A stretch of DNA of 64,000 nt from Bacilli bacterium (lineage in GTDB: Bacteria; Bacillota_I; Bacilli_A; RFN20; CAG-826): positions 21,687-85,686 of the forward strand of contig DAOPYW010000001.1 of NCBI GenBank assembly GCA_035353055.1, read 5' to 3'. Position 1 is the first letter of the stretch. The number at the start of each line of letters is the position of its first letter. The position numbers and the translations under genes were made by a program. The notes under the pieces are model-generated. The model had not been told where the DNA came from. It ran no database searches and saw only the letters and a list, made by a program, of their open reading frames with translations. Shown piece after piece: positions 14,056 through 54,445 of this stretch.

Positions 14056-16032
14056 CTATCCAATGATGTCTGAGCACATCTTCACGAGGTGATCAGCAGT
14101 GAAATCAAATTTCTTGATCACATCTCCAGCTGGGGCGCTAGCACCAAAGGTGTCGATGCCCATGTGATAATGCGCATATCGATCCCAACCAAAGGTAGAT
14201 AGCATTTCAATCGAGACTCTCTTTTCCAAAGGAAGAGGGAGAATGCCCTTTTGATATTCTTTGCCTTGCTGTTCAAATAATTCCCAAGATGGCATCGAGA
14301 CCACGCGGACATCGTGCCCGCCTTCTCTCAGCTTTTTCTGAGCTTCGATGGCGAGAGAGACTTCAGAGCCGGTAGCGATGAGGATTAGTTCCGCTTCTTT
14401 TTGCTCGCCGCTGACGACGTAGGCACCCTTGCTCAATCCTTCCGCGCTGCTCTTCTCTAACAAGGGGAGATTCTGGCGGGATAAAATCAGAGCTGTTGGG
14501 GCTTTTTTGCTCGCCAATGCCTGATACCAAGCAGCGTAAGTTTCGCGCTCATCGCAGGGGCGAATAACGCGCAAATTGGGGATGCTGCGGAGCATAGCTA
14601 ATTGCTCGACTGGTTGATGAGTCGGTCCATCTTCTCCGACAGCGATTGAGTCGTGCGAGAACAAGTAGATGGCGGGCAAATGGCTGATGGCCGCCATGCG
14701 AATCGCGGCTTTCATATAATCAGCAAAGACTAGGAAGCAGCCGACATAAGTTCTCAGACCACCATGCAGTAGCATACCGTTTTGAGCGGAAGACATCGCG
14801 AACTCGCGAATGCCCCAGTTCATGTTGTGGCCTTGTCGGGAATCGGGAGTAAAGTTGACTCCGCCTTCTAATTTGGTCATCACCGAGCTGGCGACGTCGG
14901 CTGATCCACCGATGAGATTAGGCAAAGAGAGCATATAAGCATTCAAGGCTTTGCCTGAAGCCACGCGGCTGGAGGTTGAGGAACCCGCCACAAAATCAGG
15001 CATTACCTTCGGAAGATAGTTTTCCACGCTCAAATCGATCAAATATTGAAAGCGGTCAGCATACTCAGGGTGTTTTTCCGCATACTTTTTCAGAGCAGAC
15101 TGATTTTCGCCGTAGGCTTTTTCGCCTCGAGCGACAAAGGTCTCAGCAAAATGCTGGCGAACTTCTTCGGGAATGAAGAAATCTGGATAATCAAAACCGT
15201 AGACTTCAGTTTTGGCATAATGGCCATCTTCGATGCCTAATGGGCTTCCGTGCACTGAGTGAGTGCCTTGTTTCTTGGAGCCATAGCCAATAACGGTATG
15301 GACGATGATCATAGTCGGTTTTTCTTTTGACTTTTTCGCTTCGATGATGGCTTTGTCAATAGCTTCAATGTCATTGCCATCTTTGACTTCTAGAACATTC
15401 CATTCAGAAGCGAGCAAGCGGTTTTTAACAGTTTCAGAAAAGGATAATTCAAGCGCACCATCAAGTGTAACTTGATTGGCATCGTAGAATAAAATGAGCT
15501 TATTTAACTTTTGATGACCAGCGAGAGAGATCGCTTCCTGCGATAAGCCCTCCTGCAAGCATCCGTCTCCGCATAATGCATAGACATAATGATCATGGAT
15601 GGACTTTCCATCAGGATAATTGGCTTGAACGCTCTGCTCTGCCATTGCCATACCCACTGCTTGAGCAATGCCCTGACCTAAAGGTCCACTAGTAGCATCG
15701 ACACCAGCAGTCCAGCGATATTCTGGATGTCCAGGAGTCAAGGAGTCAATCTGGCGGAACTTCTGTAATTCCTCCATTGGCAAGTCGTAACCCGAGAGAT
15801 GCAAAAGAGCATACAGCAAAGCTGAGGCGTGGCCAGCGCTCAATACAAAGCGATCGCGATTAAACCAAGATGGCTCATGAGGATTGGCTACCAAGTGTCT
15901 CGTCCACAAAGTGTAGAGAATGGGAGCGCTTCCAAGCGCCATGCCAGGGTGGCCTGATTTGGCTTTATTAATCTCGTCGATGCATAGAGATCTAATCGTT
16001 GCCACTGCTAATTCATCAATTTTTTTATTCAT
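14056..16032 (-). CDS. tkt: Transketolase
   Basis: KSGHPGMALGSAPILYTLW is the transketolase N-terminal TPP motif. It is 658 aa. Confidence 0.9.
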   Translation of the reverse strand: MNKKIDELAVATIRSLCIDEINKAKSGHPGMALGSAPILYTLWTRHLVANPHEPSWFNRDRFVLSAGHASALLYALLHLSGYDLPMEELQKFRQIDSLTPGHPEYRWTAGVDATSGPLGQGIAQAVGMAMAEQSVQANYPDGKSIHDHYVYALCGDGCLQEGLSQEAISLAGHQKLNKLILFYDANQVTLDGALELSFSETVKNRLLASEWNVLEVKDGNDIEAIDKAIIEAKKSKEKPTMIIVHTVIGYGSKKQGTHSVHGSPLGIEDGHYAKTEVYGFDYPDFFIPEEVRQHFAETFVARGEKAYGENQSALKKYAEKHPEYADRFQYLIDLSVENYLPKVMPDFVAGSSTSSRVASGKALNAYMLSLPNLIGGSADVASSVMTKLEGGVNFTPDSRQGHNMNWGIREFAMSSAQNGMLLHGGLRTYVGCFLVFADYMKAAIRMAAISHLPAIYLFSHDSIAVGEDGPTHQPVEQLAMLRSIPNLRVIRPCDERETYAAWYQALASKKAPTALILSRQNLPLLEKSSAEGLSKGAYVVSGEQKEAELILIATGSEVSLAIEAQKKLREGGHDVRVVSMPSWELFEQQGKEYQKGILPLPLEKRVSIEMLSTFGWDRYAHYHMGIDTFGASAPAGDVIKKFDFTADHLVKMCSDIIG

Positions 16033-16101: not shown

Positions 16102-17838
16102 CTATTTTTCCTCTTTGACAAGAGAGATGCCTAATTCCCTGAGCTGGTCGTCAGAGACTTCCGTTGGAGCACCAGTCATAGGGCAGACTGCCGATAAGTT
16201 CTTTGGGAAAGCAATGACATCGCGAATATTGTCGGTGTCACCGAGAATCATCGCTAGTCGGTCGAGGCCGAAAGCCATGCCTCCGTGCGGGGGTGTGCCA
16301 TATTGCAATGCCTCGATAAAGTAGCCAAACTTCGCTTTGACTTCTTCATCGCTTAAGCCGAGAATATTGAAGATTTTCTTTTGGACATTTTGATCAAAGA
16401 TACGAAGGGTGCCACCACCAGCTTCATAGCCGTTGATAACGATATCGTAAGCATAGCTTAAAAGCTTGGTAGGATCAGTATCTAAATAATGTAAGTCTTC
16501 ATCTTTGGGGCGAGTGAATGGGTGATGGCTGGCCACCATCTTGTTGGATTCAATATCCCTTTCGAACATCGGGAAGTCCACGACCCATAGCAAATCAAAG
16601 GTATGAGGTTTGACGAGCTTCAATTGGCGGCCGTAGCTCAAGCGAATAGCTCCTAACAAGGGGCTGACGCGGTTTGTTGGACCCGAGGCGAGAATAAAGA
16701 TATCGCCTGATTGAGCATTAAACTCACTGACGAGCAATTTCTTTTCTTCTTCAGAGACGAACTTAGCAAAAGAACCGAGCAATTCACCATTTTCGTATTT
16801 TAAAACGCTGACTCCACCCAATCCGAATTTTTTAGCTTCAAGGTTAAGCGTATCAATGACTTTTCTTGTCGTCACTTCGCTCACTTGATTGACGCAGATG
16901 CCTTTCACGCATTCCGCCTTTTGAAATGGCTCAAATGATGAGTTTTTAAAAACTTTAGTTTTTAAATCATGGAGTTCAATCCCGAAGCGGGTATCGGGTT
17001 TATCACTGCCAAAGCGATCCATGGCCTCGCGATAGGTCATCTGTCTGAGAGGCAGCTGAACATCATAGCCAATGCAGTTATGGAAAATCTCTTTGATGAG
17101 CCCTTCCATCATATGCAAGAATTCATCTTGGTCTAAGAAACTGGTCTCAATATCGATTTGAGTAAAATCTGGCTGGCGATCAGCGCGCAAATCTTCGTCT
17201 CTGAAGCAGCGAGCGATTTGATAGTATCTTTCAAAGCCTCCCACCATCAGCATTTGCTTGAACATTTGCGGTGATTGAGGAAGAGCGTAAAAATTTCCGT
17301 GATGAATGCGCGAAGGAACTAGATATTCTTTGGCACCTTCGGGAGAAGAAGCGCAGAGCATAGGCGTTTCAATTTCAATGAAGCGATTCTTATGCAAGTA
17401 ACTATGAGCAGTGATTTTAATCTGATCGCGAATATCGAAATACTTTTGCATGCAAGGGCGACGCAAGTCGAGATAGCGATATTTCAAACGAGTGTCCTCT
17501 AAAGCATCGGTTTCATCTGCGATGATCATCGGAGTGATTTTAGCAGTATTGATGACTTTGATTTCATCGGCTAAAATTTCAATTTCTCCTGTCTTCATCT
17601 TGGGATTTGGTGTCTCTCTTTTAGCCACCACGCCTTTGACTTGTATAACGTACTCGTTGCGCACATCAGGAATTTTGTCAGCGTCTTTGACCATGATTTG
17701 GATCAAGCCGGACCGATCGCGAAGATCGATAAAAAGAATTGAGCCTAAATTTCTTCTTTTGCTGACCCACCCTACAAGGGTGACTGATTGATTAAGGTTT
17801 GAGATTGATAAATCTGTATTCCAACATGTTCTCTCCAT
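16102..17838 (-). CDS. aspS: Aspartate--tRNA ligase
   Basis: The N-terminal anticodon-binding OB fold (VTLVGWV…RDRSGLIQI) and class II motifs are present. It is translationally coupled to hisS (ATGA overlap). Confidence 0.9.
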   Translation of the reverse strand: MERTCWNTDLSISNLNQSVTLVGWVSKRRNLGSILFIDLRDRSGLIQIMVKDADKIPDVRNEYVIQVKGVVAKRETPNPKMKTGEIEILADEIKVINTAKITPMIIADETDALEDTRLKYRYLDLRRPCMQKYFDIRDQIKITAHSYLHKNRFIEIETPMLCASSPEGAKEYLVPSRIHHGNFYALPQSPQMFKQMLMVGGFERYYQIARCFRDEDLRADRQPDFTQIDIETSFLDQDEFLHMMEGLIKEIFHNCIGYDVQLPLRQMTYREAMDRFGSDKPDTRFGIELHDLKTKVFKNSSFEPFQKAECVKGICVNQVSEVTTRKVIDTLNLEAKKFGLGGVSVLKYENGELLGSFAKFVSEEEKKLLVSEFNAQSGDIFILASGPTNRVSPLLGAIRLSYGRQLKLVKPHTFDLLWVVDFPMFERDIESNKMVASHHPFTRPKDEDLHYLDTDPTKLLSYAYDIVINGYEAGGGTLRIFDQNVQKKIFNILGLSDEEVKAKFGYFIEALQYGTPPHGGMAFGLDRLAMILGDTDNIRDVIAFPKNLSAVCPMTGAPTEVSDDQLRELGISLVKEEK

Positions 17839-19253
17839 TATTTGTTCTCCTTATGGCATTCGCAGTCTTCGTCGTGGCATTGACAACTTCCATCATGACA
17901 GTCGCAGTCGCAGTCTTCATCATGGCAATCGCAATCATCGCCGTCATGACATCCGCAGGAACAATGGTGAGAATCATCTTCCATTATCTCCACGATTTTA
18001 TCTTCAAAGTCTTCTTGAACAACGACAATTTGCTCTTTGCTAACTAGGTTTTTAATAATCACTTTGTGTTTATTAATTTCATCTTCTCCGATGATGATGG
18101 CGTATTTAGCGCCTTTCTTCTCCGCTCGCTTGAACATCGCTGCGAGCTTAATGTCATCAAAACATATATCGGCGCTATAGCCGAGCAAGCGGATGTTTGT
18201 AGCGAGGGTGTGCGCCATGAGCTGAGCTTTTCCGCCGACAGGAATGACATAGAATGATAATTCGAAGGCGGGAATATCATCTGGAATCAAATTATTATCT
18301 CTTAAAATTGAGACAATTCTTTCGATTCCAAAGGAAAAACCAATACCAGGCATATCTGGTCCGCCTAATTCTTTCACTAATTTATCGTAGTGACCACCGC
18401 CTCCAATGGCGCCGTAGTCATTGCCTTTTTCGCTGACATAATGGAATTCGAAAACGGTCTCGCTATAGTAATCTAAGCCGCGAACAAGCGTATTATCAAA
18501 TTCATAGGGGATGGCAAAAGAATCGAGATATTCCGTGATGATTTTGAAGCGTTCTTTTGAAGCTTCTGAGAGGTATTGATCGATTTTGGGAGCGCCTTTA
18601 ACAATAGCTTGATCTTCAGGCACCTTGCAGTCGAGAATCCTTAAAGGATTCATTTCATAGCGAGATTGGCAATCTGGGCACATCTTGGCTACTGAATCTT
18701 TAAAGTATTCTTTTAGAGCTTGGCGATAGGCATCGCGGCTAGCCTCATCTCCTAAAGTGTTGATTTTTATCGTGACATTTTCTAATCCAAGGCTGGTGAG
18801 GATGGTATAGGCTAACACCATCACTTCTAAGTCGCATAATGGCGAATTGCTTCCCACTGACTCCACGCCGAATTGATTGAATTGGCGGTAGCGGCCAAGC
18901 TGCGGTCTCTCATAGCGGAAAACTGGCCCATTATAGTAGACTTTTAAAGGCAGTTCACTCGTGAATAATAATTTATTTTGGACCATCATTCGGATGATTC
19001 CGGCAGTGAATTCAGGTCTCAAGGTGAGGCTTCGTTTTCCTTTGTCGAGGAAAGTGTACATCTCTTTTCTGACCACATCGCTGCTCTCTCCCACTCCGCG
19101 AACGAAGACCTCGCTGTGCTCGATGACCGGAGGTCTGACCTCCATAAAAGCGAACAATTCCGCGATGTTTTTCATGAGAGCTTCCACTTGTGAATAAGCG
19201 GCGGCTTCCCCAGCGAAAACATCGTGAGTTCCCTTAACGTTGTTAATTTCCAT
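17838..19253 (-). CDS. hisS: Histidine--tRNA ligase with an unusual Cys/His/Asp-rich C-terminal extension of about 45 aa
   Basis: The HisRS core is present (GTHDVF…, class II motifs). The tail reads DDSHHCSCGCHDGDDCDCHDEDCDCDCHDGSCQCHDEDCECHKENK. Confidence 0.9.
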   Translation of the reverse strand: MEINNVKGTHDVFAGEAAAYSQVEALMKNIAELFAFMEVRPPVIEHSEVFVRGVGESSDVVRKEMYTFLDKGKRSLTLRPEFTAGIIRMMVQNKLLFTSELPLKVYYNGPVFRYERPQLGRYRQFNQFGVESVGSNSPLCDLEVMVLAYTILTSLGLENVTIKINTLGDEASRDAYRQALKEYFKDSVAKMCPDCQSRYEMNPLRILDCKVPEDQAIVKGAPKIDQYLSEASKERFKIITEYLDSFAIPYEFDNTLVRGLDYYSETVFEFHYVSEKGNDYGAIGGGGHYDKLVKELGGPDMPGIGFSFGIERIVSILRDNNLIPDDIPAFELSFYVIPVGGKAQLMAHTLATNIRLLGYSADICFDDIKLAAMFKRAEKKGAKYAIIIGEDEINKHKVIIKNLVSKEQIVVVQEDFEDKIVEIMEDDSHHCSCGCHDGDDCDCHDEDCDCDCHDGSCQCHDEDCECHKENK

Positions 19254-19268
19254 AATAATCCCTTTCTT

Positions 19269-21488
19269 TTAGTGAATCATCCTGGTCACGCGATAGACGC
19301 CAGGAATATTTTGAACGATATTAAAAATATCGTTTAATCTCTTTGCATCGCTCACCATTAATGTGGCAGTAATGGTCGCCGAAAAATTGGAGGCATTAGT
19401 CGAAGCATGAACAGAAGAGGCGCTCACTTTCGCAATAGATAAAGTCGAGAGAACATCAACGAGCAAGTTGGGCCGATCGTTAGCTTCGATAAAGACGTCG
19501 ACGGGATAAGTTGATGCTTCGATGTCGCTCCGCCAATAGACGTTGATTAAACGCTCTTCTTCTTTAGCAATATTAGGGCAAGATTTGCGGTGGACGCTAA
19601 TTCCTTTACCTTTGGTAATATATCCGACAATCTCATCTCCAGGAATCGGTGTGCAGCAATTGGCTAATGAGATAGCTAATCGGCTTCCACCACCACGGCA
19701 ATATACTGGGGCGCTGGAAGAAATAATCTTTGGCCGTCCTCCTCCGACGCTTAATGAGACTTGTTTCTTAATCTTTAAGAATTCTAGGATGGCGCTCGGA
19801 ATGGGCTTTCTTCCCGCCACTCCAGCGAAGAGATCATCGACATTATTGAAATGGAAATTGTTCAGCACCTTGGCGCTATCGAGATATTCCATCATCTCTG
19901 GTTCATCAATACTGCGATCGCGGAAAGCGTCGAGGCAGGATTGGCGACCTTTAGTGATTTTTTCGCTGCGCATGACATCAGCGTTTTTCTTCACGATGAA
20001 CTTGCGAATGCAGCTCTTAGCTTGAGCAGAGCGCACGAAGTTGAGCCAGCCTTCGCTTGGCCCTGGGGAGTTTTTAGAGGTCTTGATTTCCACCATGTCA
20101 CCAGTCTTTAAGATAGTGTTTAAAGGAACCATTACTCCATTGACTAATGATCCGGTGGTACTATCGCCAATTTTGGTGTGAATGCGATAAGCGAAATCTA
20201 CTGGAGTGCTGCCACTTGGCAATTCAATGACCTTACCTTTAGGGGTAAAAACATAGACATTTGCTTCGAAAATATCGCGGCTTAGACTGTTTAGATAGTC
20301 GCCGTCGTTTGATTCAGTGCTCTCGTTGGTGGCAGAGACAAAGTCTCGGAACCAGTGGAGCTTATCTTCGATTTCTTGCTGCTCTCTGTGAGAGCTGTAG
20401 CCGCTGTTCTCTTTATAAGCCCAGTGGGCGGCAACGCCGGTCTCGGCGATCTCATCCATCTCCTTGGTGCGGATTTGAATTTCATAGAAGTTGCCATTGC
20501 CAGAGACAATCGTCGTATGTAGCGATTGATACATGTTGGGTTTCGGCATTGCGATGTAATCTTTAAAGCGGCCAGGAACTGGCTTGTAGGTCTTGTGAAT
20601 CAATCCGAGAATTTCATAGCACTTCATTTCCGTATCAGTGATGATTCGGAGAGCGAGGATGTCATAAATTTCATCGAAAGGGTGACCTTTCACATACATT
20701 TTGGTGTAGATAGAATAAATTGATTTGACGCGAGCGGAGATATCAAAAGTGATGTTATTCTCAAAGAGAATATCGGCGATGCGCTTGCGAATGGCGTCCA
20801 GAGATTTGCCCATGGTCTTAGCTTTATTGGACAAGAGCTTTTTGATCTCATAATATTTTTCTGGCTCCAAATATTTTAAGCAGAGGTCTTCCATCTCCGA
20901 CTTCACAATATCGAGACCAAGGCGGTGAGCGATAGGCACGAAGACTTCGATGGTCTCTTGAGCGATGGCGATTTGCCGCTCGCTCGATAGAGCCGCTAGG
21001 GTTCTTAAGTTATGGAGGCGATCAGCGAGCTTAATAATGATGACTCGGATATCTTTAGCCATGCCAATTAAAATTTTGCGATGGTCTTCCGATTCGAATT
21101 CTTCGCTGCTGATTTTAGATAATTTTAAGCGTTGGATTTTGGTGAGAGAGTCGACAATCTTGGCGACTTCGCTTCCCCACAGCCTCTCAATATCCACGAC
21201 TGTTACATCAGTGTCTTCGACAACATCGTGCAAAAATGCGGAGATGATCGTCGCTGGTCCGCCTTGCAAAGAGGCGATGATATAAGCGACTTCGACAAGG
21301 TGATGATAGTAGGGCTCACCGCTCTTGCGGAACTGATTTTGGTGCTTTTCCACGATGAAATCATAGGCAGCACGTATTTGTTTGCGGTCTTCGGGTGATG
21401 AGATATAGTTCTGATAAATAGCCTCTACATCTTCGAATGTATGAAGAGGATATCCACCATTGACAAGGGGCTTTTTGTTTTCTTCCAT
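19269..21488 (-). CDS. relA: Bifunctional (p)ppGpp synthetase/hydrolase (RelA/SpoT family)
   Basis: An HD hydrolase domain (HHLVEVAYII…HDVVED), a synthetase domain, and TGS/ACT domains are present. It is 739 aa. Confidence 0.9.
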   Translation of the reverse strand: MEENKKPLVNGGYPLHTFEDVEAIYQNYISSPEDRKQIRAAYDFIVEKHQNQFRKSGEPYYHHLVEVAYIIASLQGGPATIISAFLHDVVEDTDVTVVDIERLWGSEVAKIVDSLTKIQRLKLSKISSEEFESEDHRKILIGMAKDIRVIIIKLADRLHNLRTLAALSSERQIAIAQETIEVFVPIAHRLGLDIVKSEMEDLCLKYLEPEKYYEIKKLLSNKAKTMGKSLDAIRKRIADILFENNITFDISARVKSIYSIYTKMYVKGHPFDEIYDILALRIITDTEMKCYEILGLIHKTYKPVPGRFKDYIAMPKPNMYQSLHTTIVSGNGNFYEIQIRTKEMDEIAETGVAAHWAYKENSGYSSHREQQEIEDKLHWFRDFVSATNESTESNDGDYLNSLSRDIFEANVYVFTPKGKVIELPSGSTPVDFAYRIHTKIGDSTTGSLVNGVMVPLNTILKTGDMVEIKTSKNSPGPSEGWLNFVRSAQAKSCIRKFIVKKNADVMRSEKITKGRQSCLDAFRDRSIDEPEMMEYLDSAKVLNNFHFNNVDDLFAGVAGRKPIPSAILEFLKIKKQVSLSVGGGRPKIISSSAPVYCRGGGSRLAISLANCCTPIPGDEIVGYITKGKGISVHRKSCPNIAKEEERLINVYWRSDIEASTYPVDVFIEANDRPNLLVDVLSTLSIAKVSASSVHASTNASNFSATITATLMVSDAKRLNDIFNIVQNIPGVYRVTRMIH

Positions 21489-45118: not shown

Positions 45119-45983
45119 TGATTGTCAGTTACTGACAATTTTAATATGTCTTTGTAGAGGTCTACGCGGCGATCGCGGAAGACTCCCCAGCCTTCTCTTT
45201 CTTCGCTGATCTTCTTTAAATCAAACTCCACGACGCGGAAGCCGGTGGATTCGCGGTCCATCTCTTCGACGACGTTGCCATATTCATCGGAGATGAAGGA
45301 AGAGCCAAAGAAGGTCATGCTTGAGCCATCTTGCTCTTCAATTCCGACGCGGTTAGAAGCGATGACGGGAATGATATTCGCTGCCGCATGTCCACACATG
45401 ACGTTTTGCCAATGCGCTTTGCTGTCTTTAGGAAGGACAGGCTCACTGCCGATGGCAGTGGGATATAGCAAAATCTCCGCTCCTTTGAGAGCCATGATAC
45501 GCGCGGCTTCGGGGAACCATTGATCCCAGCAGATGCCGACACCTAAAATGCCATACTTTGTTTTAAAGGTTTTAAAGCCAGTATCACCGGGAGTGAAATA
45601 GAATTTTTCTTCGTAGCACTGGCCGGTGGGAATGTGCGATTTGCGATATAAGTCTACGACTTTGCCATCAGCATCGATGACTGCGAGGGAATTGAAGTAA
45701 CAATTGCCCGCTTTTTCAAAGAATGAAATGGGCAGGACGACATCGTATTTTTTAGCCATCTCTTGATAATGCTTGATCAAAGGAGAATCTTCGGCGGATT
45801 GCGCTAAAGCAAAATGATTGTAGTTTTCGGTCTGGCAGAAATAAGGGGCTTGAAATAGCTCGGGGAGAAGGATGATATTGGCACCTTTTTGACTGGCTAA
45901 GGCAATCAGAGCATCAGCTTGCTGAATGTTTTGCTCTAGTTGCCAAGACATCGACATCTGAGTGCAGCACACTTTAACTTTCA
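45109..45983 (-). CDS. aguB: N-carbamoylputrescine amidase (carbon-nitrogen hydrolase family)
   Basis: The nitrilase-superfamily triad context (…LLPELF…, …GICWDQWFPE…) is present. The start ATG has RBS AAAGGAG. Its first 10 nt overlap the speA-aguA 3' end. Confidence 0.75.
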
Positions 45984-48592
45984 TGTTTTGCTCCTTTGGG
46001 TATCTGCATAGTAACGCAGTGGATATTTCCACCACCAATCAATATTTCTTTGGAATAAATCTGGATGACTTCTTTATCGGGGAAGATGGCTTTGAATTGC
46101 TCTAGAGCAATCTGATCTTCCTTGACTCCGAAGCCAGGAATGATAACAAAGCGGTCGCTCTGATAGAAGTTGATGTAGGTCGCTAAGAGATTGTCGCCCG
46201 CTTGGCGAGGCTTAGCGTTGTAGCGGCTGGCGGAGATGCCTTTAGCTTCTTTAGTTGATAAATATATCGGAGCGGGCATCTTGACTTTAGTCACTTTGAG
46301 AGTTCGTCCATGAGCGTCTTTCGTGGTCTCGAGAATTTTTAGGGCTCTAGTGGCAGCGCTATATTGAACTTTGTCGGCGGTTGATGGCCAAGCCAGCAAG
46401 ACTTCGCCGGGGCGAGCAAACGCCACCATGTTATCGACGTGCTCATCAGTCTCATCGCCGATGATGCCATGGGGAATCCAGATGATGTCGTTGACGCCGA
46501 GGTATACTTTGAGGGTTTCCTCGATTTCAGCTTTGCTGAGATGAGGGTTGCGCCCTTTGGAGAGGAAGCAAGCTTCGGTGACGATGAGGGTGCCATCGCC
46601 ATCCGTGGCAATCGCACCGCCCTCCATGACGAAGGAAGGCAAGCGGTAACTTGAGAGCTTGAATTTCTTGACGATGTTATTGCCTAAGGCATCATCATCT
46701 TGATAGTTGGTGTATAAGCCATCGTACTCGCCGCCCCAAGCATTGAAGCGGAAGTCGACGCTGCGGATATCGTTCTGCTTGTTGCGCAGGAAAATAAGCG
46801 TGTTATCGCGTGCCCAAGCGTCGTTGTAGCGAACTTTGATGGGAATGACGTTGGGAATATTTTCGAGCCACGCAAGGCTCTTTTTATATATTGTCGGGTG
46901 AACTCCGACATAGACCTTTTCGAATTTTGCGATTGTCGCGATTAATTCGCGGTATTCTTCAGTAGCGTCTTTGGCGTGGTTGCGCCAGACATCGCTGCGG
47001 AAGGGCAGGAGGATGATCGTTCCATCATGCTTATCGCCTTCAAAAGGCAAGTAATAGCCATCTCTTCGGGGAGTAGTCTGCTCATTTTTGACGTAATCAT
47101 GCAATCTTTTCTTATAGAAAGAGAAGTTTTTCCATCTCTCTTCATCGACGATTTCCACTAGCTCGCAATTGGGATGATTGGATAAAATCGTGCACTGCTT
47201 GTTCAAGCCATCTTCGATTTGGAAGATGATGTCTTTGGAAAAGACTTCGCCCGCTTGGATGAGCGGGATTCCCGGAGGGTAGATGACAATGGATTCTTTG
47301 CTGATGTGATTCAAGGCTTGGCGGAGCGGAACTGCAAGGCTCGGAGCGAAGAAAGCCGTTCTCGGTCTGGCGAGCATAAAGCCATATTTAAAGGCAAAGG
47401 AATGCATCGGATAAGTCTGATTCTTGTGGAAGTGCTCTTTAGAGATGCTCTTCAGAGCTTTGACTAAGGCGTTGAGGTGAGCATCGGTCGTTCCGAGGGC
47501 TAAGATGCAGAGGATGACGTAGGTTTCCGCTAGCTCGACTTGCACATGGTAGCGAGTTTTTAAAAGGCGGTAGACTTCGTAGCCGTTGATATCGAGGCGA
47601 TCGAGTTCAATCAAGAGCTTGGTTTTATCGTAGTTAAAAGCCCCGGAGGATTTGAAGTAATCTTTCCCGCGGACGATGAAGCCGGGAATCTTGTTGATTT
47701 CATCAAAAGCTCTCTCGCTGATAGCGATTACTCGCTTGGAGACCTCTTCACCATGCTCAGCGATGTAAGCGCGAGCGGCATCCAAAGAGCCGATCAATAT
47801 TGAGCTCGGTGAGGTGGTATTCATAAGGTTGAGAGTCTCTTGAATCTTGATATTGGAGACGCGGTCACCTTTTAATAATAAAACCGAGGACTGAGTGAGC
47901 GAACCGGCGGTCTTATGGAAGGAGACGGAGCTGAGATCCGCTCCAGCATCCATCGCGGTGACAGGATCGTTGTTGGTCAAGTAGTAATGCGCGCCATGCG
48001 CCTCATCGACGATGACGGCCATGTTTCTCTCGTGGGCGAATTCCACGATTGAGCGCAGGTCAGCGATGACGCCAAAATAAGTCGGGTTGATCACGACAAC
48101 GGCTTTTGCGGAAGGATAGCGCTGGATCATTTTTTTATATTCCTCTAAAGAGGGTTGATTAGCAATTTCAATGTTCGCATCGATGTGGGGTTCCACATAG
48201 ATGGGGACGGCGCCAGAGAGAACTAAGGCGTTTGTTAAAGATTTATGGACATTGCGGGGAATGATGATCTTATCGGTCGGCTTGCAGACCGTCATCACCG
48301 CGGCGATGAGACCCGAAGAAGTGCCGTTAATTAAAAAATAAGCGTAGTCTGCGTGACAGACTTCCGCCATTAATTTCTCACTTTGCAAAATAACCCCGCT
48401 AGGGTGGGCTAAATTATCTAATCCATAAGGGGCATTGACATCGCATTGGTAGACCTTTTTGCCGACGAGATCAGTCATCTCATTTTTGATGTTGCCCATG
48501 TGGTGTCCAGGTACATCAAAAGGGGATATCCCTTCATTAACATAGCTCTTTAGAGCATCTACAAAAGGCGTCTGAATGTCTTTCTTGTCCAT
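45974..48592 (-). CDS. Fusion of Orn/Lys/Arg-decarboxylase-family arginine decarboxylase (N-terminal) and agmatine deiminase (C-terminal)
   Basis: The N-terminal half matches the SpeA-type PLP decarboxylase (FDVPGHHMG, SFHKTAGSL). The C-terminal half matches AguA (YNDAWARD, FNAWGG, KGRNPHLSK, GGGNIHCVTMQ). It is a single 872-aa ORF. Confidence 0.8.
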   Translation of the reverse strand: MDKKDIQTPFVDALKSYVNEGISPFDVPGHHMGNIKNEMTDLVGKKVYQCDVNAPYGLDNLAHPSGVILQSEKLMAEVCHADYAYFLINGTSSGLIAAVMTVCKPTDKIIIPRNVHKSLTNALVLSGAVPIYVEPHIDANIEIANQPSLEEYKKMIQRYPSAKAVVVINPTYFGVIADLRSIVEFAHERNMAVIVDEAHGAHYYLTNNDPVTAMDAGADLSSVSFHKTAGSLTQSSVLLLKGDRVSNIKIQETLNLMNTTSPSSILIGSLDAARAYIAEHGEEVSKRVIAISERAFDEINKIPGFIVRGKDYFKSSGAFNYDKTKLLIELDRLDINGYEVYRLLKTRYHVQVELAETYVILCILALGTTDAHLNALVKALKSISKEHFHKNQTYPMHSFAFKYGFMLARPRTAFFAPSLAVPLRQALNHISKESIVIYPPGIPLIQAGEVFSKDIIFQIEDGLNKQCTILSNHPNCELVEIVDEERWKNFSFYKKRLHDYVKNEQTTPRRDGYYLPFEGDKHDGTIILLPFRSDVWRNHAKDATEEYRELIATIAKFEKVYVGVHPTIYKKSLAWLENIPNVIPIKVRYNDAWARDNTLIFLRNKQNDIRSVDFRFNAWGGEYDGLYTNYQDDDALGNNIVKKFKLSSYRLPSFVMEGGAIATDGDGTLIVTEACFLSKGRNPHLSKAEIEETLKVYLGVNDIIWIPHGIIGDETDEHVDNMVAFARPGEVLLAWPSTADKVQYSAATRALKILETTKDAHGRTLKVTKVKMPAPIYLSTKEAKGISASRYNAKPRQAGDNLLATYINFYQSDRFVIIPGFGVKEDQIALEQFKAIFPDKEVIQIYSKEILIGGGNIHCVTMQIPKGAKHES

Positions 48593-52699: not shown

Positions 52700-52966
52700 T
52701 AATAGCCAAAGACAGTGCGAAAGAGAAAGATATCACGAATCTGATAGAGAGTTTGCGGTTGGTGGAAGCAAATAGAGAACGATATGCAATATACACTTTC
52801 AAGTCGAATCGCTGAACTGACAGTAGGCGACTCCGGAAATCCTCCGTGACAGGGATAAGAGTTATATGACTCGATGAGTGATGGCAAACGCCATAAGATG
52901 GGTGGTACCGCGGAAATCATACGATCTTCGTCCCATAACTAGGGGGAGAAGATCGCTTTTTATTTT
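52700..52966 (+). promoter_or_regulatory. T-box riboswitch leader upstream of a tryptophanase/tyrosine phenol-lyase-family gene
   Basis: The T-box motif AAGATGGGTGGTACCGCGG sits at 52894-52912. The terminator ACGATCTTC…GAAGATCG plus CTTTTTATTTT is at 52921-52966. TTGACA at 52671 serves as a -35. Confidence 0.75.
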
Positions 52967-52993: not shown

Positions 52994-54445
52994 ATGTCTC
53001 ACATCGCCCGCTTCAAAGCTGAGCCTTTCCCATTAGAGATGCACAAGGCTCGCATCGTCCAGAAAATCACTCTGTTACCAATCAAAGAAAGATTAAAAGC
53101 CATCCAAGGGGCGGGAAACAACACCTTCTTATTAAGAAATCGCGACGTCTTCCTCGATATGCTGACCGACAGCGGCACGAATGCGATGAGCAATGAGCAG
53201 ATCGCTGCGATGAATATCGCTGATGACGCTTATGCGGGAAGCGAGACCTTCTATCGCTTAGAGAAAGCCGTCAATCGCTTTTTCGGCACGAAGTACTTCT
53301 TGCCTGCCCATCAAGGCCGAGCTTGCGAGCACATCTTGGCCAAGCAATATGTCAAGCCCGGGGATGTCGTCCCGATGAACTATCACTTCACCACCACAAA
53401 GGCTCATATCATGGAATGCGGTGGCACGGTCGAAGAATGCTTCATCGATGAGGCAGTAAAAACCACTAGCAATTGCCCATTCAAGGGTGATATGGACATG
53501 GATAAATTAAGAGCCATCGTCAATAAAGTCGGGAGCAACCATGTTCCCTTTATCAGAATCGAGCTAGGCACCAACCTCATCGGTGGTCAGCCCATCTCTT
53601 TAAGAAGCATTAAAGAAGTCAGCAGCTTTGCTCGCAAAGAAGGGATCATGATGGTCATCGACGCGAGCTTATTAGCGGATAATCTCTACTTCATCAAGCA
53701 GAGAGAAACAGCCTATAAAAATGCTGATACTCAAACCATCGTTCACGAGATCGCCAAATGCGCGGATATCATCTATTTCTCCGCTCGCAAGTTGGCCTGT
53801 GCGAGAGGCGGTGGATTAGCGATGCTCAGCCAGAAATACTTCGATGATATGAAATCTCTGGTACCACTATATGAAGGGTTCCTCACCTATGGTGGTATGT
53901 CCGTCCGAGAGATGGAAGCCATGGCAGTAGGCTTAGAAGAGACCCTCGACATGGATATGATCTCTCAGGGTCCTGAATTCATCAGTGAGTTCGCCTCACA
54001 ACTGCAAAAAGAAGGTATCCCCATTGTCACCCCCGCGGGAGGATTGGGACTACATATTAACGCGAGAGAATTCTTGCCTCATATCCGCGGCGAGCAATAT
54101 CCCGCGGGAGTGCTGGCCACCGCCATCTACCTCATCACTGGATCAAGAGGCATGGAAAGGGGCACCATTTCTGAAGCGCGCAACCCCGATGGTAGCGAGC
54201 ACATCGCTTCTGTGGAACTCGTCAGATTAGCGATGCCAAGAAGAGTATTCACTCTATCTCATATCACCTTTATGGTTGATCGTTTAGCGTGGCTATATAA
54301 AAATCGCGACCTAATCGGTGGCTTAAAGTTCATCGAAGAGCCACAAGTGCTCCGCTTCTTTATCGGACGCCTAGGAGAGATCGGCGATTGGCAGGAACGA
54401 TTAGTAGATAAATTCATCGAAGACTTTGGCAAAGACGCCTTATAG
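52994..54445 (+). CDS. Beta-eliminating lyase (tryptophanase/tyrosine phenol-lyase family, PLP-dependent)
   Basis: It is 483 aa with …FLLRNRDVFLDMLTDSGTNAMS…AGSE…FYRLE…, a PLP-lysine region …FSARKLA…, and the C-terminal …LKFIEEPQVLRFF. It is colinear with TnaA/TPL. Confidence 0.8.
   Translation: MSHIARFKAEPFPLEMHKARIVQKITLLPIKERLKAIQGAGNNTFLLRNRDVFLDMLTDSGTNAMSNEQIAAMNIADDAYAGSETFYRLEKAVNRFFGTKYFLPAHQGRACEHILAKQYVKPGDVVPMNYHFTTTKAHIMECGGTVEECFIDEAVKTTSNCPFKGDMDMDKLRAIVNKVGSNHVPFIRIELGTNLIGGQPISLRSIKEVSSFARKEGIMMVIDASLLADNLYFIKQRETAYKNADTQTIVHEIAKCADIIYFSARKLACARGGGLAMLSQKYFDDMKSLVPLYEGFLTYGGMSVREMEAMAVGLEETLDMDMISQGPEFISEFASQLQKEGIPIVTPAGGLGLHINAREFLPHIRGEQYPAGVLATAIYLITGSRGMERGTISEARNPDGSEHIASVELVRLAMPRRVFTLSHITFMVDRLAWLYKNRDLIGGLKFIEEPQVLRFFIGRLGEIGDWQERLVDKFIEDFGKDAL

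Follow-up and report, generated by a model that had tools for sequence, protein, structure and literature searches.

Why should a bacterial histidyl-tRNA synthetase (HisRS) end in a dense run of cysteine, histidine and aspartate residues? The question is raised by the hisS gene (17838..19253, minus strand; 471 codons plus a TAA stop in the open reading frame (ORF) listing) in a 64,000-nt stretch of DNA from a Bacilli bacterium (GCA_035353055.1, contig DAOPYW010000001.1, positions 21,687 to 85,686), referred to below as the window. The translated protein finishes with a 46-residue tail, aa 426-471, DDSHHCSCGCHDGDDCDCHDEDCDCDCHDGSCQCHDEDCECHKENK (17841..17978, minus strand). In T. thermophilus HisRS, the anticodon-binding domain (Leu331-Gly421) is the end of the protein (PMC4357726), and the AARS Online survey lists WHEP as the only domain appended to HisRS. 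A full-text literature search, in which few subscription journals are covered and absence is not proof, found neither HisRS nor any other bacterial aminoacyl-tRNA synthetase described with a Cys/His-rich tail. To our knowledge, bacterial aminoacyl-tRNA synthetases have rarely acquired appended modules, and none is known with a metallothionein-like tail. By analogy with metallothioneins and SlyD, we slightly favour the reading, at a probability of roughly 0.55, that the HisRS tail is a selected, polyanionic metal-binding tail with thiolate and imidazole ligands.

The window encodes a true HisRS with an appended tail

The product of hisS is a true class IIa HisRS with a catalytic core and an anticodon-binding domain. 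It matched the NCBIfam hisS equivalog TIGR00442 over aa 5-410 with 454.8 bits (cutoff, 286.75), and the HisZ models scored well under their cutoffs. Pfam assigned tRNA-synt_His (PF13393) to aa 8-313 and HGTP_anticodon (PF03129) to aa 335-422. The top relative in the PDB was S. aureus HisRS (1qe0, E = 6e-105). An AlphaFold2 model built on 30 homologues showed a confident HisRS fold, with a predicted local distance difference test (pLDDT) score above 85 for most of the body and a final helix (aa 413-428) of high pLDDT. According to Pfam and AlphaFold2, the anticodon-binding domain including this helix covers aa 335-428 (17970..18251, minus strand), the usual end of a bacterial HisRS. Solved HisRS structures comprise 420-438 aa and align only as far as residue ~422 of the query, which agrees with the initial annotation of the window in that such a tail is abnormal for HisRS. 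Beyond the helix, aa 429-471 had a pLDDT of 30-40 and no secondary structure, and the tail is thus predicted to be natively disordered.

The appended sequence quoted by the initial annotation is present exactly, at aa 426-471. Its 13 Asp residues were counted correctly, whereas the 13 Cys and 8 His that the annotation gave for some 45 residues are 12 Cys and 7 His in 46. Together with 4 Glu, these residues give a net charge of -15. Cys accounts for 26%, His for 15% and Asp plus Glu for 37% of the tail, and aromatic and aliphatic residues are absent altogether. It contains seven CxC and five CxCH motifs, with neither CC nor CxxC. Motif counts place the Cys/His cluster core at aa 429-467 (17853..17969, minus strand), where five degenerate (CxC)n-H-D-[EG]-[DS] units form the presumed metal-ligand region; it uses TGT four times, TGC eight times and both His codons. 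Against a mean of 1.05% Cys and 2.2% His in the long ORFs of the window, 12 or more Cys would fall within 46 residues with a binomial probability of 5e-14. A six-frame scan of the 64-kb window revealed no second Cys/His-rich stretch, and the ends of the aspartyl- and valyl-tRNA synthetases (AspRS and ValRS) are ordinary, without a Cys/His tail.

The tail has no recognizable homologue in the collections searched. Neither the window tail nor three of four tails from relatives matched Pfam at E<=10; the fourth gave a weak match to DUF1979 (E 0.032), which we judged meaningless and which is not a metallothionein family. A PDB search with tail sequences returned no matching chain, and a word-indexed database search with the window tail yielded three candidates and no matches. 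A zinc ribbon, zinc finger or Fe-S motif was likewise not found in the window tail, which has no CxxC, no Pfam domain and no predicted structure.

The initial annotation had named a frameshift from a sequencing or assembly error as one finding that would overturn its claim. The identical HisRS protein is on record in NCBI (two accessions), JGI, ENA and Logan, on 14 contigs in total. Five contigs from different samples (ENA, NCBI GCA_035403865.1 and two JGI metagenomes) are nucleotide-identical across the full coding sequence (CDS). An assembly error is excluded by the identity of the CDS on 14 independently assembled contigs, and the tail is also in frame in relatives. It lies within the hisS frame up to the aspS start, as annotated; the junction, however, is not an ATGA overlap but the sequence TAATG (17836..17840, minus strand), in which the hisS stop and the aspS start have one base (17838) in common.

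Two further origins for the sequence were considered and rejected. A separate Cys-rich peptide from an internal start is contradicted by the sole in-frame ATG (M424), which has a GGAG only 3 nt upstream and is not kept in relatives (ELLE, ELLD). A DNA tandem repeat is not behind the window tail either, since it contains merely a 17-nt trace, (CAGTCG)x2.8. As a separate observation, other-frame ORFs overlap the region at 17792..17977 (minus strand) and 17799..18047 (plus strand). They would encode hydrophobic proteins of 61 and 82 aa rich in Ala, Val, Thr and Met, and the simplest reading of them is as by-products of the periodic TGY/CAY/GAY codons.

Cys/His-rich tails are widespread in one Bacilli radiation

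C-termini were compared in two sets of relatives. The first comprised the 120 best database homologues (62-81% identity, 428-511 aa), which are 'Bacilli bacterium' metagenome-assembled genomes (MAGs) where named. At least four tail Cys were present in 114 of these 120, and only three had none; among the 114, tail length ranged from 5 to 87 aa with a median of 26. The second set, obtained by scanning one genome per GTDB species, gave 80 loci. HisRS from Bacillaceae, Planococcaceae and similar aerobes ended 0-4 residues past the last helix, and some 32 of the 80 loci encoded Cys-rich, mixed Cys/His or poly-His tails. According to the record titles, the tail-bearing loci belong to MAGs from the rumen, the gut, digesters and anoxic lakes, and their labels are Bacilli, Erysipelotrichaceae, Mollicutes, Merdibacter and Candidatus Faecimonas. 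The longest Cys-rich tails in this set reach 100 aa with 21 Cys (L030, L035). Locus L023 exemplifies a poly-His tail (EGEHHHHHEE), and Erysipelotrichaceae tails such as those of Merdibacter and 'bacterium c-19' read ...CSCGHHHE or ...CNCEPGNCTCTHHHE (L044, L050, L036).

In a collection of 1.84 billion proteins, about six of the 150 nearest 50%-identity cluster representatives carry such tails, mostly those of the clusters nearest the query. The tail is therefore abnormal for HisRS overall and normal for this Bacilli radiation. The initial annotation had held that a common, lineage-wide low-complexity extension without metal binding would speak against its proposal; the tail is indeed lineage-wide rather than genome-specific, which is one half of that condition. 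In a neighbour-joining ordering, the tail-bearing sequences occupied several adjacent clades with a few tail-less ones interspersed (P0089, P0093, P0120, L004, L005, L007), which implies repeated loss and/or gain of the tail. Among the genes examined, the tail is specific to HisRS: within ~720 kb of flanking DNA from the 80 related loci, a scan that covered flanks rather than whole proteomes, no real gene had a comparable Cys/His segment.

Some relatives showed features of their own. The long tails of P0012, P0054 and P0069 (503-511 aa) share, besides the Cys/His repeats, a better-conserved module, CG(H)xPGxFPCxxTGxCPCGxNPxxCxC. From its sequence, this Pro/Gly-containing Cys module looks like a small folded domain; it matched nothing in Pfam save DUF1979 (E 0.03), and a word-indexed search gave one candidate and no matches. 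In a distant tail-bearing clade (L026, L051, L053, L060, L076), the gene after hisS encodes ~435-439 aa as opposed to the 570-600 aa of bacterial aspS products, and may specify an archaeal-type AspRS or an asparaginyl-tRNA synthetase. The 435-aa frame downstream of hisS in L026, probably that gene, has a CxCxxC...CxxC arrangement ~30 residues from its start. Finally, P0272, from the 90%-identity cluster of P0002, is labelled Sphaerochaetaceae bacterium by NCBI while the other members are labelled Bacilli bacterium; faulty binning or contamination of the MAG is the probable cause of this label.

Cysteines and composition are retained while length and spacers vary

The tails of the 120 closest homologues can barely be aligned with each other, and they share a composition. 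Over 3461 tail residues, we counted 23.7% Cys, 21.0% Glu, 13.3% His, 10.9% Gly, 10.8% Lys and 8.7% Asp, with each hydrophobic or aromatic residue (F, Y, W, L, I, V, M) below 0.5%. There were 289 CC and 273 CxC motifs and only 11 CxxC, and a CCEG-type motif, as in RECCEGDECEC, is common to 55 tails. In one cluster defined at 90% identity, variation affected 21 of the 57 columns in the tail and 25 of the 425 in the body, a rate ~6-fold higher in the tail. Whole Cys units had been inserted or deleted in this cluster and D, E, G, S, N and H swapped for one another, and the Cys columns were constant. Between the window protein and the 81%-identical P0002, body codons were close to synonymous saturation (179 synonymous versus 177 identical), and none of the 11 aligned tail Cys had been lost, although at five the codon had switched between TGT and TGC. 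Among synonymous codons, the tails show the same preferences as the gene bodies. Taken together, the sequence comparisons indicate purifying selection on the amino-acid composition of the tail, chiefly on Cys, that would leave spacers and copy number free. The pattern of Cys conservation argues for selection rather than neutral low complexity.

Tails lengthen via in-frame tandem duplication. In L072 (5288..5499), which encodes a 97-aa HisRS tail, a 39-nt unit is repeated 3.4 times (95% identical) and a 33-nt unit 5.6 times, all in frame; the units encode HECECGHHHDDKE-like modules, each with a Cys cluster and a His cluster. Repeats resembling those of L072 are present in P0031, P0016 and P0017. 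The tail thus evolves fast in length and spacers with Cys and composition held, and it is confined to one lineage and widespread there.

The very end of the tail has a different origin. In the window, the last four hisS codons, AAG GAG AAC AAA (KENK), contain AAGGAG (17847..17852, minus strand), which reads as the aspS Shine-Dalgarno (SD) sequence in codons K468-E469, 8 nt before the aspS ATG. The commonest tail ends among the 120 homologues, KEGK, KKGE, KKEN and KEEK, are all encoded by SD-like codon strings, and at loci where aspS starts 10-25 nt downstream the SD follows the hisS stop codon. The conserved K/E/G/N end, KENK in the window, is therefore explained by the aspS SD encoded there and not by metal chemistry. 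Tail-less members of the clade, which end in ...KEGDE or ...QGE, have the SD-encoded terminus as well; the tail is accordingly an inserted Cys/His module that separates the last helix from this terminus.

A metal-binding tail is the favoured explanation

The reading as a metal-binding tail draws on the high content of Cys in CxC and CC motifs with adjoining His, the absence of hydrophobic residues, the polyanionic spacers, the disorder, the modular copy number and the abundant housekeeping carrier. Each CxC(H) or CC unit would provide two or three soft ligands, and several units could wrap several Zn2+, Ni2+, Co2+ or Fe2+ (or Cu+) ions. Asp and Glu would keep the apo tail soluble and extended. 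Since both subunits of the HisRS dimer would have a tail anchored at the anticodon-binding domain, metal might be buffered or captured at an enzyme whose own substrate is a metal ligand, charging of tRNA-His could become sensitive to metal load, and the tail's charge of -15 may modulate tRNA binding. Metal binding, the identity of the metal and the effect on aminoacylation are what we infer in this model. Free histidine is a major cellular ligand of Zn and Ni; the link between histidine and metal status that the initial annotation proposed is speculation.

Several points weigh against a metal-binding tail. The tail shows no homology to Pfam families, metallothioneins included, or to PDB chains, and neither metal-homeostasis genes beside hisS nor hydrogenase, urease or metal-transport genes near it were found. 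Its repeated loss within the clade implies that HisRS can work without it. The tails are hypervariable in length and sequence, as slippage-prone low complexity would give, and the ligand set is not uniform, since the tails of some clades are His-only or merely acidic (L023, L015, L011). The conservation of Cys seen in the 90%-identity cluster and against P0002 is inflated, because low-complexity alignments tend to pair Cys with Cys. Moreover, the metal rationale for HisRS as the carrier is purely a proposal.

Should the tail bind metal, HisRS would belong with SlyD, HspA and GroEL1, abundant housekeeping proteins with a second role as metal buffers, and this would bear on estimates of cellular metal quotas in organisms without classical metallothioneins. 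Hundreds of HisRS homologues from uncultured anaerobic Bacilli of the gut, the rumen and digesters retain the tail, and neighbouring proteins do not have it. This distribution suggests that histidine charging is linked to transition metals (or thiol redox) in a way so far overlooked, in a poorly studied part of the microbiome. Annotation pipelines call such proteins merely 'histidine--tRNA ligase', and the tails could serve as natural affinity tags for purification by immobilized metal affinity chromatography.

Alternative explanations

A close rival of the metal-binding reading, although unlikely in absolute terms, is a thiol or zinc-thiolate redox switch in strict anaerobes. Here, the tail would detect oxidants in the manner of the CxC/CxxC zinc centre of Hsp33; oxidation or metal release would collapse or cross-link it and lower HisRS activity, and uncharged tRNA-His would feed the stringent response through the co-transcribed RelA. 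The very dense Cys in CxC and CC would suit such a switch, as would its attachment to the tRNA-binding domain and the origin of the carriers in rumen, gut, digester and anoxic-lake MAGs, judged by record titles. The relA gene, 15 nt upstream, seems to share the operon with hisS; the relA-hisS-aspS linkage is, however, a general Firmicute arrangement found also with tail-less HisRS and thus carries no specific information on a redox switch. The His-only and acidic-only tails of sister clades are unable to act as thiol switches. The effect on activity is purely proposed, and the model overlaps metal binding rather than opposing it.

About as improbable is a functionless low-complexity expansion, in which replication slippage and tandem duplication at a structurally permissive C-terminus, flanked by the last helix and the aspS SD, would have produced drifting repeats that are tolerated. 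The range of tail lengths, from 5 to ~100 aa, the hypervariable sequence, the recent perfect tandem duplications, the ~6-fold excess of variable columns over the body, the repeated loss and the predicted disorder are all what drift would leave behind. On the other hand, the same composition recurs across clades that are 41-50% identical in the enzyme body, Cys is kept through synonymous turnover, neighbouring genes show no such drift and the DNA of the window tail is not a simple repeat. Neutral persistence of 12-21 Cys is unlikely because Cys makes up ~1% of this genome's proteins and is reactive. Given the retention of Cys, neutral drift is the less likely explanation.

A little less probable again is a metal- or redox-gated HisRS, in which tRNA-His charging would be turned on or off by occupancy or oxidation of the tail, tethered beside the surface that binds the anticodon. 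Metal or oxygen status in these small-genome anaerobic gut Bacilli could then be read out via uncharged tRNA-His and the co-transcribed RelA stringent factor. An aminoacyl-tRNA synthetase controlled in this way would be without described precedent, and the control would exploit the part that histidine plays as a major cellular metal ligand.

A role at the level of nucleic acid or translation is very doubtful. The run of His, Cys and Asp codons would act as a ribosome-pausing sensor, on the model of the his leader peptide and the mycobacterial polycysteine leader ORFs, or an RNA structure would tune hisS-to-aspS coupling. The tail does end in the aspS SD and a stop/start overlap, some relatives have pure His runs (HHHHH), and polycysteine ORFs are described as known attenuators (Canestrari et al., 2020, as cited in PMC9031893). 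The mRNA of the tail, however, folds no better than shuffled sequences (z = -0.43) and the hisS-aspS region has no Rfam match, which led us to reject an RNA structure. His is not conserved (many tails have 0-2), relatives swap Asp for Glu, and tails are also seen at loci whose aspS has an SD of its own and begins 10-25 nt downstream. A leader-peptide attenuator or other cis-regulatory RNA was rejected too: the codons belong to hisS, synonymous codons vary, and it is amino-acid identity that is conserved and not codon identity. In addition, pausing at the 3' end of hisS during a shortage of His-tRNA would yield less HisRS, the wrong sign for homeostasis.

The same model gains something from the lack, in front of the window hisS, of the T-box that Bacillaceae have. 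All Bacillaceae loci without a tail have a T-box before hisS (loci including L027, L029, L031, L040, L047 and L058), and the closest relatives of the window (L001-L007) have none. Tails nevertheless co-occur with a T-box in L010, L044, L050 and L080. The idea that the tail replaces the T-box was dropped: L035 also combines the two, and the tail-less L005 and L007 lack a T-box. With a T-box in five tail-bearing loci and none in tail-less close relatives, tail and T-box are independent.

An artefact, in which a frameshift, misassembly or miscalled stop joined an out-of-frame or non-coding stretch to hisS, is practically negligible, as it has nothing in its favour but the oddity of the sequence and the two composition-driven overlapping ORFs (17792..17977, minus; 17799..18047, plus), and it is contradicted by the identical CDS on 14 contigs from independent assemblies, five of them compared base by base, and by in-frame tails of like character in hundreds of homologues.

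Gene neighbourhood and other features of the window

Downstream of hisS, aspS (16102..17838, minus strand) encodes a bacterial-type AspRS of 578 aa with the Pfam domains tRNA-synt_2, tRNA_anti-codon and GAD, and the shared TAATG reads as a translational-coupling junction. It is followed by tkt (14056..16032, minus strand; ORF listing). Upstream lies a relA/spoT-family (p)ppGpp synthetase/hydrolase gene (19269..21488, minus strand) with HD_4, RelA_SpoT, TGS and ACT_4 in Pfam. The 15-nt gap between relA and hisS (19254..19268) contains no T-box, as judged by the lack of an Rfam match, and no dtd gene. A promoter-like site (21531-21503) and terminator-like hairpins (21579-21557 and 14035-14014) bracket relA-hisS-aspS-tkt, which probably form a single operon.

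The insertion domain of the window HisRS contains a CxxC...C triad, C192, C195 and C209 (MCPDCQ...ILDCK; about 18627..18680, minus strand). Of the Bacilli HisRS examined, all 54 with a tail and 106 of the 125 without one have a triad of this type, and in ~15 sequences the three positions change jointly to Ser/Ser/Ser. This coordinated pattern suggests a shared role, possibly as a metal or disulfide site, that would be independent of the tail.

Two loci elsewhere in the window were recorded. A T-box leader (52706..52938, plus strand; 101.5 bits) lies directly upstream of a 483-aa gene (52994..54445, plus strand) whose product has Beta_elim_lyase (tryptophanase/tyrosine phenol-lyase type) as its sole Pfam match, an unusual T-box cargo. 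The alignment tentatively gives UAC (Tyr) as the specifier, which would fit a tyrosine phenol-lyase in the synthetic direction. An 872-aa ORF (45974..48592, minus strand) fuses OKR_DC_1, an Orn/Lys/Arg decarboxylase domain (aa 8-306), to PAD_porph, a Porphyromonas-type peptidyl-arginine/agmatine deiminase domain (aa 515-865). By its domain content, the fusion would join two consecutive steps from arginine to putrescine in one polypeptide.

Comparison with known systems

The likeness to SlyD-, HypB- and metallothionein-like tails put forward by the initial annotation holds on composition, motifs and predicted disorder. Canonical HisRS (S. aureus 1qe0, E. coli 1kmm, T. thermophilus 4rdx) shares with the window enzyme the catalytic, insertion and anticodon-binding domains and the hisS-aspS pair; unlike it, these enzymes stop at the anticodon-binding domain and have no C-terminal extension. 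Polycysteine and polyhistidine leader attenuators also have Cys or His codons packed closely together just ahead of the start of another gene. In contrast to the HisRS tail, which is the end of a 471-aa enzyme before aspS and is conserved at the amino-acid level, they are separate short ORFs before Cys or His biosynthesis genes.

Among bacterial metallothioneins, the tail resembles SmtA/BmtA and the Runella aurantiaca TrxA chimera in its ~25-30% Cys in CxC and CC, in the use of His as an extra ligand and in the lack of aromatic residues. Metallothioneins are marked by ~15-30% Cys in CxC, CC or CxxC, a range that includes the 26% of the window tail, and by few or no aromatic and hydrophobic residues. 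The Runella protein, a bacterial thioredoxin-metallothionein chimera that binds heavy metals and raises tolerance, is further alike in joining a metallothionein module to a housekeeping enzyme (PMC13578184). The HisRS tail differs from metallothioneins in having no Pfam homology, in being fused instead of a small independent protein, in being far richer in Asp and Glu, and in being predicted as disordered rather than folded in a zinc-finger-like manner. A poly-Cys/His tail is also found on a nematode protein, which is a metalloprotein (PMC2954182).

Metal-binding-type tails are known from chaperonins as well. H. pylori HspA (GroES) and mycobacterial GroEL1, whose His-rich tail binds Cu, are comparable in that a lineage-specific tail of this kind sits on an essential, abundant carrier with orthologues elsewhere that lack it (PMC4671568, PMC10170517). 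They are unlike the Cys-dominated HisRS tail in being mainly His-rich and tied to the Ni or Cu physiology of their host.

A parallel in architecture is SlyD, the FKBP-type peptidyl-prolyl isomerase of E. coli and H. pylori. Both proteins carry an unstructured C-terminal extension rich in His, Cys, Asp and Glu on a folded housekeeping protein, with CC and CxCH-like ligand clusters and a length that varies between species. In keeping with tails of the SlyD/HspA type, the HisRS tail is a disordered His/Cys/acidic extension (pLDDT 30-40) of 5-100 aa across relatives. The His- and Cys-rich C-terminus of SlyD binds several Ni2+ and Zn2+ ions (PMC3292732), whereas we infer metal binding by the HisRS tail from its sequence. 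The carriers differ, an FKBP chaperone as against a class IIa aminoacyl-tRNA synthetase, and the HisRS tail has more Cys than His, is more acidic and is unconnected with the maturation of hydrogenase or urease. Housekeeping proteins that bear a metal-binding Cys/His tail are already known as a kind; HisRS as the carrier and the wide spread of the tail in uncultured gut Bacilli are new.

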